Source: Candidatus Falkowbacteria bacterium
GTDB taxonomy: Bacteria; Patescibacteriota; Patescibacteriia; JAACEG01
NCBI GenBank assembly: GCA_018651725.1
Contig: JABIDK010000019.1
Span: 3,894-67,893, forward strand
DNA length: 64,000 nucleotides
Direction: 5' to 3'
Of the stretch, positions 10,799-48,672 are shown piece after piece (position 1 is the stretch's first letter; each line of letters starts with the position of its first letter). The notes beneath the pieces were generated by a model, which did not search any database, had not been told where the DNA came from, and saw only the letters and a program-made list of their open reading frames with translations. A program made the position numbers and the translations under genes.

Positions 10799-12433
10799 TC
10801 ACTCTTCCCCGTAAACAGCGCTCCATAGTAGTAAATAGCCTATCCCAAGCGGATGGTTTAGGTAGGGGGTGAAAAAATGGATTGCTGTTAATGCGATTAC
10901 TCCGAGTATACTTCCGAGGATTATTTTGTTTTGTTGCTTTTGATGACCTTGTTTTATGATCTGGAATAGTAATAGTAAATATGCCAACAAACCAAAGAGG
11001 CCTAGTTTTAGCCAGATGTCTAAATAGCCCCATTCGAAGGCGTAGGTTGTGTAGAGTCCGTTGGGGTTGTTTTCTAGGGCGCGGGGGTCTTCGGTTTTGT
11101 AGGTAACTGTTTTGCCGAAGCCGGCTCCGAGGATGGAATTTTCTTTTACCTCTTTCCATAATGGTTTTAATAGTCCCCAGCGACTACCGATAGCAACGTC
11201 GTCTTCAGTTGCTCTTTTACTAAGTGATGAAATAAAATCAATGTCTGATCTTTCTCGAAAAGGAATCGGCGCTTCGATTAAAAACCCACTTAAACCGATT
11301 GCGGAAACAAAAATAACTAGAACAACCAAAAAACTTACAAAAATAGATTTTATTTTCTCCTTTTTAAAGACAAGATGATAAATATAATAAACAAAAAAAG
11401 TTGCAATAATTCCAACCGCAAAGCTACGGGAGAAACTTATAATGATCACACTTGCCAAAAAAATTATTAAACTTAAAAATAATTTGTTGCTTTTTATGCT
11501 TTCGGGGGCTGTTGCAAAGCACCGGTTTTGAGATAAGTTTTCAGATTTTAAGGAAATTTCTTTATCAAATTTTTTGCTTATGCACCCGCATAGGCCAAAA
11601 ATTTTAGAAAGAAATTTACTAAAATATGGAAATTTAGACGAAATCGGTGCTTGGTGACAGCCCCACCTTTGAACAAATTTTTTGTTCAAAATTGGCAGTA
11701 AAATAAAAAAAGTTAAAACTGCGTAAATATGGGACTGTAAAAATATGCGGAAAAAACCTGTTTCCATTTTGGCAATTTCCCCTACTCCTGTTATGCGAAC
11801 CCAGCGATAAATTTCAGGAGTTATTCCGATAAAATTATGTGAAAAAATAAAAAGCAAAAAGAAGGTTTTTAATATTAAGGCTGTTAAAGCGGCGAGTAAC
11901 ACAGAAAACAGTTTATTAAAGTTGTCTTTTCTTATTACTTCAAAGATAGGGAAAGCTAGGAGAAAATATAACCAACCATTGGAATCAAAGAAAACATTAG
12001 ATAGTTGATTCTTGTGCATTATTCCGGAGATGACTCCGTAGATAATGAATAAAAATAAAATCAAAAAATAGGGGAATAACTTTGACTTTAAAAAAGCTAT
12101 TTCTAATTTTTTCGTTTTAAAATATTTTAAAAATACTTTAAAAGCAAAAACTGACATTACAACAGCGAATAATCCTATTCTGATTGAAATTGCTTTTTCT
12201 CCTGCTTCAAAATAAAAAAGGTAGCCTTTACTGGCTATTATTAACTCAGATAGAATAATCAATACTCCGTAAAAAAGATTTCGCCAAGCTAAAAATAAAA
12301 CACCAAGCAAAATTAAAATAAAAAATATTTTATTTAACAACGGAAAAGCAAAAGCGTATAAACTAAAAAACTCTATTAAAATAATAGAGTAAAACGCGAT
12401 CTTAAAATACTTTTTATCCAAAGCAAAATTCAT
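10799..12433 (-). CDS. Polytopic membrane protein, O-antigen-ligase/Wzy_C-like, carrying a ~54-codon hydrophilic insert that coincides with a palindromic repeat element
   Basis: More than 10 TM helices. The SxSRS motif (ISFSRSFAVG) resembles Wzy_C. Residues ~251-316 (KKFVQRWGCHQAP...ESIKSN) are non-membrane and map onto repeat 11503..11664. Confidence 0.45.
   Translation of the reverse strand: MNFALDKKYFKIAFYSIILIEFFSLYAFAFPLLNKIFFILILLGVLFLAWRNLFYGVLIILSELIIASKGYLFYFEAGEKAISIRIGLFAVVMSVFAFKVFLKYFKTKKLEIAFLKSKLFPYFLILFLFIIYGVISGIMHKNQLSNVFFDSNGWLYFLLAFPIFEVIRKDNFNKLFSVLLAALTALILKTFFLLFIFSHNFIGITPEIYRWVRITGVGEIAKMETGFFRIFLQSHIYAVLTFFILLPILNKKFVQRWGCHQAPISSKFPYFSKFLSKIFGLCGCISKKFDKEISLKSENLSQNRCFATAPESIKSNKLFLSLIIFLASVIIISFSRSFAVGIIATFFVYYIYHLVFKKEKIKSIFVSFLVVLVIFVSAIGLSGFLIEAPIPFRERSDIDFISSLSKRATEDDVAIGSRWGLLKPLWKEVKENSILGAGFGKTVTYKTEDPRALENNPNGLYTTYAFEWGYLDIWLKLGLFGLLAYLLLLFQIIKQGHQKQQNKIILGSILGVIALTAIHFFTPYLNHPLGIGYLLLWSAVYGEE
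11503..11664. repeat. ~162-bp nested palindromic element, copy A, in-frame inside CDS 10799..12433
   Basis: Outer inverted repeat GGGGCTGTTGCAAAGCACCGG / TCGGTGCTTGGTGACAGCCCC. The ~66-bp core gaaatttctttatcaaattttttgcttatgcacccgcataggccaaaaattttagaaagaaattta is ~85% identical to 19301..19366. There is an inner TATGC-N4-GCATA stem. Confidence 0.7.
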
Positions 12434-18870: not shown

Positions 18871-18875
18871 AAAAT

Positions 18876-18907
18876 AAAAAAAGCGTTTTAGAAGAAACGC
18901 TTTTTTT
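18876..18907. terminator. Bidirectional rho-independent terminator between the convergent recR and rplU genes
   Basis: aaaaaGCGTTTTagaaGAAACGCttttttt: a 7-bp GC-containing stem flanked by an A-run and a T-run. Confidence 0.7.
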
Positions 18908-18917
18908 ATTGTATATT

Positions 18918-19232
18918 CTATCCAATTTTTCCAATTTTTACTTTTGTAAACGGTTGTCTGTGACCGTATACTTTTTTGTATCTTGTTTTGGCTTTGTATT
19001 TTACAACTTCTACTTTTTTGTCTCTTCCTTGCTCTAAAACTTCAGCCTCTATTTTTACATCTTTAACTAAAGGCTCGCCAATTTTTATATTTTCTCCTTT
19101 TTCATCAGAAACAAGCAAAACTTCTTCAAAGTTCACCTTTTTCCCAACTTCAGTATCGATTTTTTCAATTTTTAATTCTTGACCCTCGGCAACTTTATAC
19201 TGTTTACCGCCGGTTTTTATCACTGCTAACAT
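18918..19232 (-). CDS. rplU: 50S ribosomal protein L21
   Basis: MLAVIKTGGKQYKVAEGQ...KVVEVVKYKAKTRYKKVYGHRQPFTKVKI. The start is trimmed to the conserved M of MLAVIKTGGKQ. Confidence 0.9.
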   Translation of the reverse strand: MLAVIKTGGKQYKVAEGQELKIEKIDTEVGKKVNFEEVLLVSDEKGENIKIGEPLVKDVKIEAEVLEQGRDKKVEVVKYKAKTRYKKVYGHRQPFTKVKIGKIG

Positions 19233-19253
19233 AAATTTAAAAACTAAACCCAT

Positions 19254-19420
19254 AGACTGGTTACATAATAAGCTATGTTACGAAATTCTCAGATTTTGAG
19301 GAAATTTCTTTTAAAAATTTTTTGCTTATGCCTTAGCATAGGCCGAAAATTTTTAAAAGAAATTTACCAAAATACGGGGATTGCAGTAATAGCTTATTGT
19401 GTAACCGGTCTATTACAAAG
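19254..19420. repeat. ~161-bp nested palindromic element, copy B, in the rplU 5' leader, bounded by inverted copies of a 22-bp dyad motif
   Basis: TIR-like ends tagactGGTTACATAATAAGCTATGTTAC ... GTAATAGCTTATTGTGTAACCggtcta. The core 19301..19366 (gaaatttcttttaaaaattttttgcttatgccttagcataggccgaaaatttttaaaagaaattta) is itself a 21-bp-arm palindrome around TATGC-N4-GCATA. Confidence 0.7.
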
Positions 19421-19457
19421 GTTTAGATATCTTTATTAATAATGCTTAAATGATATA

Positions 19458-19901
19458 CTATTTTCCTTTTTCTGTCAATATCTTTACGGTCTCGCCTACT
19501 TTTATACCATATTTTTCACAAAATCCGGCGTTTACCTCTAAAACTTTGTTTGCTTTTTTACTTGGAGTATAGCTTGGAATATTTCCATTGGACGGGATCT
19601 CTGCATTTTTTGCTATCTCAACAACCGTATTATCATCTATCCAAATTATATCGATCGGGAATTTCATATCCTTCATCCAAAAAATATGTGTATCTTTTTC
19701 ATCAAACACAAAAAACAAACCACAATCCTGACACAAACTATCACGTCCGGAAAGCCCCTGTCTTCTGCCTGAAAATGTATCTACTGTTTCTATACTTATA
19801 ATTTTATCCCCTATTTTTAGTTCTGTATTTATATCCTCATTCTTAACTCCACAACCACTAAACAAAATAACAATTAAAAATAATAAAAAAGTTTTTTTCA
19901 T
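19458..19901 (-). CDS. DUF192 (COG1430) lipoprotein
   Basis: Lipobox MKKTFLLFLIVILFSGC. The DUF192 signature is GLSGR...FVFD...MKDMKFPIDIIWID. Confidence 0.65.
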   Translation of the reverse strand: MKKTFLLFLIVILFSGCGVKNEDINTELKIGDKIISIETVDTFSGRRQGLSGRDSLCQDCGLFFVFDEKDTHIFWMKDMKFPIDIIWIDDNTVVEIAKNAEIPSNGNIPSYTPSKKANKVLEVNAGFCEKYGIKVGETVKILTEKGK

Positions 19902-47527: not shown

Positions 47528-48631
47528 TTAAATTTTTATTTCTTCTAATTTAACTTTTATTTTTTTAATTTTTCCGCTTCTTAAAACTTCTAACTCAACC
47601 TCAGTATCCGGTTTATACTCTTGAATTATCTCACTTAAATTCTTTTTTGTACCTATCTCTTCTCCTTCAATAGAAATAACAATATCTTTATATTTCAAGC
47701 CAACTTTACTTGCCGGACTGTTCTTTTCTATCGCCTCTGTACTTTTATCGCTATAAATCAAAGCTCCTTTACTTTCTGATATATTATCTGTTGTTTTATT
47801 ATCTTTAGTAAACTCTGTAAGGTCAATATAGTTTATTCCTAAAAATATTCTTTTTAGTTCCTTACCTCTTAATACTTGACCTATTGTGTCTTTAAAATCA
47901 TTTATAAAAATCGCCTTATATATTCCTCCTTCTCCGCTGCTAACAAGCCCTGTCACTTCTCCGTGCGAATTAATAAGAGGGGATCCAATATTGCTTTTCC
48001 CGTCTATAACCATCCTTCGCTCCAACTTTTCGCTGGACAGAATTAAACTATCAAAATTATTCAAACTAATCACTTTGTGCAGTAAAACACCACCAAACAA
48101 ATCCAATCCGATCAAGTCATCAAGCAAATTAAGTTTATTTGAATCTCCTAATTTTATTGCCTCTAAATTGTCATCTTCAACCTCTGCTTTCAAAAATAAA
48201 ACTCCTGTTGCTGGGTCAACTATTTTTTCTTTAAAAGAAAAAACTTGCCCGTTATTGATAACAACTAACTCACTGTTTATTTCTTTATTTAAGTTTTCAG
48301 AGAGAGTAACAACCCAACCATCGTCAGTTAAAACAAATCCATAAGCGATAATGTCTTGCGGTAAATAGTAATTATCAGTTAAATTATCAGAATCTTCTTT
48401 AGCGCGCGCAACCCCTACTACACTTTTTCGAAGATGATCCATGGAAACATCATAAAAAGTTTTCTCACTGTCTTTAAAGGTTAATTCGCCCGTACTTAAA
48501 TTATCGATATTTCCTGTGTAAGATTTTATATCTAAAATATTATCTTCCACAACTAAAGCACCTAAAATACCGGCCAAAAAACCTACCACCATTGAAATTA
48601 AAACAAGATATAAGCTATAAAATTTTTTCAT
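47528..48631 (-). CDS. HtrA/DegP-like trypsin-fold serine protease with a C-terminal PDZ domain, membrane-anchored
   Basis: N-terminal TM helix. Protease core with a degenerate GNSGGPL equivalent (KSNIGSPLINSHGEVTGL). C-terminal PDZ domain. Confidence 0.55.
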   Translation of the reverse strand: MKKFYSLYLVLISMVVGFLAGILGALVVEDNILDIKSYTGNIDNLSTGELTFKDSEKTFYDVSMDHLRKSVVGVARAKEDSDNLTDNYYLPQDIIAYGFVLTDDGWVVTLSENLNKEINSELVVINNGQVFSFKEKIVDPATGVLFLKAEVEDDNLEAIKLGDSNKLNLLDDLIGLDLFGGVLLHKVISLNNFDSLILSSEKLERRMVIDGKSNIGSPLINSHGEVTGLVSSGEGGIYKAIFINDFKDTIGQVLRGKELKRIFLGINYIDLTEFTKDNKTTDNISESKGALIYSDKSTEAIEKNSPASKVGLKYKDIVISIEGEEIGTKKNLSEIIQEYKPDTEVELEVLRSGKIKKIKVKLEEIKI

Positions 48632-48648
48632 ATTTTTTTATTAAATTT

Positions 48649-48672
48649 ATTACATAATAAGCTATGTAACAA
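48649..48672. promoter_or_regulatory. Solo copy of the 22-bp dyad motif (a)TTACATA-ATAAGC-TATGTAAC, immediately upstream of the htrA-like start
   Basis: ttacataataagctatgt is 18/18 identical to 19261..19278, the left end of repeat element B upstream of rplU. Confidence 0.45.

Follow-up and report, generated by a model that had tools for sequence, protein, structure and literature searches.

Positions 19252–19413 of the window (the whole 64,000-nt stretch of Falkowbacteria DNA analyzed here) most probably represent one copy of a family of palindromic insertion elements of about 160 nt. [quoted passage not shown] Comparison of the copies shows that the family is a dispersed insertion element of uniform length with a conserved core of about 100 nt. 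The copy in question is located upstream of rplU, the gene for ribosomal protein L21. The first-pass annotation had proposed a mobile or repeat element that is either tolerated or co-opted, and this proposal agrees with the finding of copies in several genomes at roughly ten loci that are unrelated to one another. Since copies reside in a protein-coding gene and in an RNase P RNA gene, the element belongs to a known kind and is not a regulator of L21.

Palindrome in the rplU Leader

The rplU gene (18918–19232; 104 aa, PF00829) and its upstream neighbor, a DUF192 gene (19458–19901), are both encoded on the minus strand, so that the leader of rplU runs from right to left in the window. The inverted-repeat unit of about 161 bp that had been annotated between these two genes was recovered as an imperfect palindrome of 162 nt at 19252–19413 (copy 2), of which the plus strand is the better-folding orientation. 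The minus-strand rplU mRNA thus holds the reverse complement of this "plus" orientation. One end of the element adjoins an alternative upstream ATG of rplU (19253). The outer arms of the hairpin (19252–19276 and 19389–19413) are 25 nt long and 92% complementary (23/25), and the inner arms (19278–19331 and 19336–19389) are 54 nt long and 74% complementary. The apex is formed by the stem GCTTATGC (19324–19331), the loop CTTA, and GCATAGGC (19336–19343). The left terminal inverted repeat, TAGACTGGTTACATAATAAGCTATGTTAC, occupies 19252–19281, and the right one, which ends in GCAGTAATAGCTTATTGTGTAACCGGTCTA, occupies 19384–19413. The left arm had been annotated correctly, but the right arm had been placed at 19393–19420, 7 nt too far to the right; it is found at 19386–19413, and the unit ends at 19413. 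Similarly, the inner palindrome previously called "perfect-ish" does exist, but it is not perfect, as its arm ends in GAAATTTA and 20/21 positions match.

When folded as RNA, the plus strand of 19252–19413 forms a single hairpin of −81.2 kcal/mol (z −14.3 relative to shuffled sequence), and the minus strand reaches about −69 kcal/mol (z −11.8). The values obtained for DNA are −47.3 kcal/mol for the plus strand and −39.1 kcal/mol for the minus strand. The number of chance matches expected in the window for the 23-nt end motif is 0. These results confirm that the inverted-repeat architecture of 19252–19413 is real and far beyond chance.

A promoter-like sequence, TTGACA-17-TATCAT (19450–19478, minus strand; 11/12 match), is located upstream of the element, and transcription of rplU would start near 19443. 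Because this promoter-like site is kept in L028 (loci outside the window are referred to by L numbers), the element is assigned to the 5' UTR of rplU; counted from the inferred start, it spans about +31 to +192. The element is flanked by the two arms of a pre-existing leader hairpin: the 5' arm UCUAAACC (19419–19426, minus strand) pairs with 19244–19251, and the 3' arm GGGUUUAG, followed by a U5 tract, is found just upstream of the rplU ATG (19239–19251, minus strand). At the other end of rplU, between this gene and the convergent recR, the window has a terminator-like hairpin (18873–18910) with A/T runs on both sides, which is probably a bidirectional terminator.

The first-pass annotation had suggested a search for relatives devoid of the element at this site, and two syntenic ones were found. 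L018 shares the DnaB-YbaB-RecR/L21 arrangement (64% identity for DnaB and 55% for L21) and has no element upstream of rplU. The same is true of L028, the closest syntenic relative found (57% identity for the DUF192 protein), whose genes follow one another as Glycos_transf_4, DUF192, one additional gene, L21, and RecR; on a longer contig that encodes the same DUF192 protein, YbaB and DnaB come next. L028 and the window have in common the promoter-like TTGACA-17-TAT(C/T)AT together with the ~25 nt that follow. In L028, the leader hairpin (about 2087–2112) reads UCUAAAUUC-UAAG-GAAUUUAGA-UUUUU, and the hairpin of the window, which likewise ends in UUUUU, differs from it by a compensatory change (CC/GG vs. 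UU/AA). When the element (19252–19413) is removed, its flanks fold as a 9-bp hairpin with a 3-nt loop; when it is present, the predicted fold retains the pairing of the flanks and leaves the start-codon region unpaired. These comparisons show that in the window the element was inserted at the tip of a small hairpin that the leader already possessed.

The alternative offered by the first-pass annotation was an autoregulatory leader. The hairpin would then be a cis-acting RNA to which L21 (or L27) binds and which regulates rplU. This explanation draws on the position of the element between the promoter-like site and rplU and on its strong structure, and the small hairpin with the U-tract of the same leader, kept in a relative, could itself be regulatory. 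However, the same element occurs in a coding sequence, in RNase P RNA, in lgt, and in front of a flippase gene, an abortive-infection-type gene, and other genes, while it is missing from L018 and L028, two relatives in which the neighborhood is shared. The better structure is formed by the antisense strand, and none of the Rfam ribosomal leader families is matched, even at E-values up to 10. In Rfam searches of the window at the gathering threshold and of the element at E-values up to 10, only chance-level matches to plant and animal microRNA-precursor hairpins were obtained. A conserved L21 leader had been expected to be recognizable by the same 161 bp being kept at this locus in related genomes, with no copies elsewhere; the opposite was observed. 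An autoregulatory L21 leader is therefore scarcely tenable, and the large hairpin in front of rplU is a false lead as a new ribosomal-protein leader. The native regulatory feature may be the small conserved leader hairpin, possibly an attenuator, and not the big element.

According to the proposed scenario, the insertion element would be co-transcribed as a self-contained extension of the leader hairpin, leaving the start codon unpaired. It would be tolerated at rplU because it only lengthens an existing hairpin, and it thus appears to be a tolerated insertion and not a sensor of L21. The copies in RNase P RNA and in the ligase gene described below likewise occupy sites at which an extra helix or loop would be largely harmless.

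Within the species, the element was present in 8/8 of the contigs shown (out of 22), seven of which match the window exactly across the element, and no empty sites were seen among the same-species contigs shown. In the low-coverage same-species contig L025, three of the five differences from the window fall inside the element (19312, 19313, and 19375), which may reflect assembly errors in the hairpin or faster change.

Distribution and Insertion Sites of the Family

In total, 13 copies of the element were identified in about eight Parcubacteria/Falkowbacteria-type genomes, with nhmmer E-values ranging from 1e-24 to 4e-44 (for copy 2, the match covers 19253–19413 with an E-value of 2e-42). Exact-pattern scans with the apical stem-loop, performed on 185,579 species genomes and on metagenome contigs, yielded three genomes (L001, L002, and L003) and four metagenome contigs (L007–L010), the other matches being due to chance. 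Three further carriers were revealed by an exhaustive HMMER search in which the 54-aa insert of copy 1 (see below) was used as a query, and their contigs contributed four copies: L015A, L015B, L016 (the same as L017), and L018. A chimeric query composed of four reading frames of the element retrieved only the same-species protein from 5.8 billion proteins, and scans of viral contigs for the element gave nothing or a chance match.

Eleven of the 13 copies are 160–162 nt long, and the remaining two each carry a nested GC-rich hairpin of 20–22 nt. These nested CCCGT...ACGGG hairpins are found at different positions within the element (L007 2288–2306 and L016 2141–2156) and may be inserted hairpins of another kind that is smaller still. 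The part conserved among the copies is the central ~100 nt, which in copy 2 corresponds to 19283–19382 and includes the apical stem-loop (19324–19343), while the ends differ between copies and co-vary arm against arm. The family end sequence, located at the termini of the element, is TAGACYTGTTGC. Copies of subtype A have the terminal inverted-repeat consensus TAGACYTGTTGCRTAATAAGTT at both ends, and they begin and end with TA; the TA is itself part of the palindrome and could belong to the repeat just as well as to a target-site duplication. In subtype B (copy 1, L007, and L015A), the ends are GGGGC...GCCCC, also inverted, without TA. The MITE-like terminal inverted repeats of the first-pass annotation are thus present, together with TA termini, but the combination of variable ends and a conserved core is the reverse of a textbook MITE. 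This pattern is opposite to the prediction for a transposase that binds terminal repeats and counts against one.

The copy number is low: the exact-pattern scans returned only the three genomes and four metagenome contigs named above, the window contains two copies and a solo arm, and three copies (L001, L015A, and L015B) belong to MAG CAYNJS01. Together with the fixation within the species, the low copy number counts against mobility. The contigs of the latter MAG (L001 and L015; CAYNJS010000001.1 and CAYNJS010000051.1) are labeled "uncultured Gammaproteobacteria bacterium" and have a GC content of 31–33%. This label may be wrong, as the element is otherwise found only in Parcubacteria/Falkowbacteria-type contigs. 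The solo arm of the window (48642–48670, plus strand) agrees with copy 2's left inverted repeat at 24/29 positions, with an exact core of 18 nt, has no partner arm, and is situated 11 nt upstream of the ATG of a PDZ-protease-like gene (47528–48631, minus strand). The motif is itself a small dyad, TTACATA-N6-TATGTAA. The solo arm may be what remains of a lost copy, or it may have arisen by recombination. As the end motif has TTATGTAA-like half sites and occurs alone again at 48648, a dif-like site for the resolution of chromosome dimers was considered and rejected: there is no switch of GC skew in the window, and the motif is not conserved in the other copies.

No reading frame is open in all copies of the element, and no start codon is conserved. 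A small protein gene was rejected as well, since the ATG and the frame of the plus-strand ORF at 19275–19439, which is also present in L010, are not kept in other copies. The cognate transposase that the first-pass annotation had hoped to find did not come to light: none of the 53 ORFs of the 64-kb window encodes a transposase, an integrase, or an HUH/Y1 protein. In the fetched loci, there was no longer element with these ends and there were no further inverted repeats.

Copy 1 (11504–11665, minus strand; hairpin 11505–11664) is a 54-codon in-frame insertion in a gene of the O-antigen ligase family (10799–12433, minus strand), whose product is a protein of 544 aa (Wzy_C). Its core (11535–11634) is 83% identical to 19283–19382, which substantiates the earlier statement that a copy lies inside an unrelated coding sequence. 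The basal stem is of a different sequence than that of copy 2 and is still self-complementary. In the alignment of the ligase with its ten closest homologues (54–61% identity, 493–517 aa), a block of 53 columns, corresponding to the element read as 54 codons, is missing from all ten. The 54 residues would be added to a lysine-rich hydrophilic stretch of this membrane protein, which is short in all homologues. The intact 544-aa product is encoded on 15 contigs of the same organism. In two others (L013 and L014, 99.95% identical), T replaces the minus-strand A at window position 11932, and the resulting change of AGA to TGA truncates the gene 89 codons upstream of the insertion.

A second host gene is that of RNase P RNA. 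The element of L010 (3265–3425) lies within this gene (L010 3230–3756, minus strand), which is matched end to end by the full RF00010 model (bacterial class A) with a score of 144.7 bits, and it forms an insertion of ~160 nt between the 3' strands of P2 and P4. In some bacteria, the optional helix P19 is found in this P2–P4 linker. Unexplained large helix extensions have been noted in the RNase P RNAs of CPR bacteria (PMC8172020), and the element is the concrete origin of one helix extension in the RNase P RNA of these bacteria.

The third gene to be entered is lgt (L015 979–2023), which is split by a frameshift: its N-terminal part reads through L015A to a TGA, and the rest is in the +1 frame. 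The divergent second copy of this contig, L015B (2021–2182), is found at the end of lgt, between convergent genes. The other copies are located next to genes. That of L003 lies upstream of a membrane protein gene, that of L001 separates a prepilin peptidase gene from the gene that follows, and that of L009 fills the gap between two co-directional genes. The copies of L016 and L018 occupy the same locus, upstream of a polysaccharide flippase gene, in genomes that are 88% identical, and other leader copies are found upstream of abortive-infection-type and further genes. Adjacent to the element of L007, the region 1–2240 has almost no ORF of at least 60 aa (table 11) and no Rfam or tRNA match; it could be a decayed region, a region with an unusual genetic code, or a non-coding feature. 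At three loci (ligase, RNase P RNA, and rplU), the homologous sites are empty in relatives.

Selection on the Hairpin and Strand Asymmetry

The consensus hairpin derived from the alignment of the 13 copies has 66 pairs, and compensatory double changes are observed in 36 of them, which indicates that the hairpin itself is under selection. In total, 92.5% of the cells at paired positions are able to pair, compared to 81.8% in shuffled alignments, and none of the 500 shuffles reached the observed value by any of five measures. In slid registers, pairing falls to 35–56%. The copies that were found by the protein search have the apical stem GCTTATAT/ATATAGGC, unlike those found by pattern scans. 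Thus, the apex co-varies too, and its invariance among the pattern-found copies is an artefact of the search.

A feature that goes beyond the first-pass annotation is the strand asymmetry of the hairpin. All 13 copies fold better in the orientation of the window plus strand, by 3–25 kcal/mol. The alignment has 59 G-U cells on the plus strand versus 15 that are G-U solely on the opposite strand, and it includes two near-invariant U-G pairs; the alignment and the structure were derived from the plus strand, which leans these counts that way, while the energies calculated for each strand are free of such bias. In 10 of the 11 unambiguous cases, it is the weaker version of the hairpin that is present in the host transcript (two-sided binomial p about 0.01), the exception being L007. 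The hairpin is more stable antisense to the transcripts because G-T/G-U pairs of one strand become C-A mismatches on the other. The GC skew of the loci divides the copies in the same way as transcription does, and L007 is the exception in both respects, so that orientation relative to replication and orientation relative to transcription are inseparable. In the window, the minus strand is the G-rich one, and the GC skew is negative throughout, with no switch. A C-to-T bias on the G-rich minus strand would give the opposite pattern; hence, the usual mutational skew does not explain the strand asymmetry.

Such an asymmetry might also be expected if the family consisted of small RNA genes read from the plus strand of the window, antisense to the host genes. 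The hairpin would then be either a mature RNA or a precursor that is cleaved by a double-strand-specific RNase. The greater stability of the plus-strand hairpin in all 13 copies, the two near-invariant U-G pairs, and the fact that the core sequence and its unpaired nucleotides are kept between genomes with only 64% identical DnaB are in line with this explanation. Nevertheless, neither a conserved promoter upstream of the copies nor a terminator or U-tract after them is present, the internal TTGCTT-17-AAAAAT is a weak promoter match, and the element behaves as an insertion, with copies inside a coding sequence and an RNA gene, where an independent antisense origin is unlikely. Small RNA genes are consequently considered very unlikely.

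Another explanation, compatible with a mobile origin, is that the element has been co-opted as a cis-acting module that aids expression as a 5' stabilizing hairpin, a Correia-like outward promoter, or a processing site. Seven insertions end 0–45 nt upstream of a start codon and are in one orientation. The −10-like hexamers located directly before the element in L002, L003, L016, and L018 suggest that transcripts may start at the foot of the hairpin, and a TATTAT/TATTAC motif is found ~12 nt inside the downstream end. On the other hand, the intergenic spacers are very short, and closeness to start codons is therefore expected, while the copies in the coding sequence and in RNase P RNA are incapable of such action. 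An outward promoter was rejected as the cause of the orientation bias, since TATTAY is present in both arms and the motif is symmetric. Co-option of this kind is regarded as rather improbable.

For the preferred explanation, a non-autonomous insertion element, the following mechanism may be proposed. The element would be recognized or moved as a folded single strand of plus polarity by an enzyme supplied in trans, and the moving strand would most likely be DNA, because no promoter or terminator for a plus-strand RNA is conserved around the copies. Insertions would survive mainly when they are oriented such that both the transcript and the G-rich strand bear the weaker hairpin, with the tolerance of transcripts or of the exposed DNA strand acting as the filter on orientation. 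A more specific version, that of a structure-guided module, is unlikely, though less so than the alternatives discussed above: a recombinase would recognize the conserved core of ~100 nt in the form of a folded single strand of DNA, always of the same polarity, and would insert the element preferentially at the tips of existing hairpins. If true, the unexplained helix extensions in the structural RNAs of CPR bacteria (RNase P RNA and perhaps also rRNA), as well as loop insertions in their proteins, would have a general source in such modules, whose orientation would be locked to replication or transcription.

Comparison with Known Palindromic Elements

The Rfam L21 leader of Firmicutes resembles the element by its position upstream of rplU, but its covariance model gives no match, and the element is neither specific for this locus nor kept at it. 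Strand-specific folds in which G-T pairs are tolerated on one strand are characteristic of the ends of IS200/IS605 elements, of REP/RAYT systems, of integron attC sites, and of the attachment hairpin of the CTX phage. The likeness of the element to these single-stranded hairpin substrates, which is an analogy only, lies in the strand-specific fold, in the structure kept through sequence change, and in the orientation tied to a strand. However, the known substrates are shorter, or asymmetric with distinct ends, and have defined core motifs, which were not seen here. In particular, IS200/IS605- and REP-type elements have distinct ends with subterminal hairpins, whereas the element described here is a palindrome over its whole length with equivalent ends.

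Inverted repeats, termini of TA, a high AT content, and transcripts that form long stem-loops are typical of bacterial MITEs (PMC2229807; PMC10969869). These elements are defined by a size below ~300 bp, a lack of coding capacity, terminal inverted repeats, and dispersed copies with filled and empty sites (PMC2229807), and all of these features were observed in the present family. The Correia/NEMIS, RUP, and ERIC elements are 100–200 bp long, AT-rich, non-coding, have TA termini, and are often found just upstream of genes; the Correia elements of Neisseria contain promoters and undergo cleavage by RNase III (PMC2229807; PMC10969869). The family shares with this group the size, the AT-richness, the lack of coding capacity, the terminal inverted repeats, the TA termini (in subtype A), the long stem-loop, and the location before genes. 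However, elements of the Correia/RUP type have conserved terminal repeats that match a known IS transposase (IS630 for RUP) and documented TA duplications, whereas the present family has variable, co-varying ends, a conserved core, and no known partner transposon. The targets of the YPAL/RU-2 elements of Yersinia span or adjoin dyad symmetry (PMC2229807), and some insertion sequences target palindromes. Copy 2, located at the apex of a pre-existing leader hairpin, is similar in this respect, as a single well-resolved case.

RPEs are palindromes of 105–146 bp with long stem-loops and terminal inverted repeats, and the mechanism of their mobility is unknown; they are found in intergenic regions, in frame in genes for conserved proteins, and in the genes for tmRNA and RNase P (M1) RNA (PMC2229807; PMC10969869). 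The present family, with one in-frame copy in a coding sequence, one copy in RNase P RNA, and several intergenic copies, is similar to them. This likeness, by description, would be one of kind and not of family, as the host belongs to the CPR and not to Rickettsia. The copy number is also much lower (two copies and a solo arm in 64 kb), and one of the insertions into coding sequences (lgt) disrupts the frame. A conserved peptide is said to be encoded by RPEs, whereas the present family has no conserved reading frame. The strand asymmetry and the orientation bias were not found described for RPEs in PMC2229807 and PMC10969869.

A literature search revealed no description of MITE-like or other such palindromic elements in CPR genomes. 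A family of palindromic insertion elements is now documented in these bacteria, the kind being already known and the host group new, and the behavior of the Rickettsia elements is thereby repeated in another lineage with reduced genomes. This supports the idea that self-folding palindromes are the insertions that compact genomes tolerate, since their only effect is an additional helix in an RNA or an additional loop in a protein. The strand asymmetry and the orientation bias provide a testable handle on the movement of such elements.
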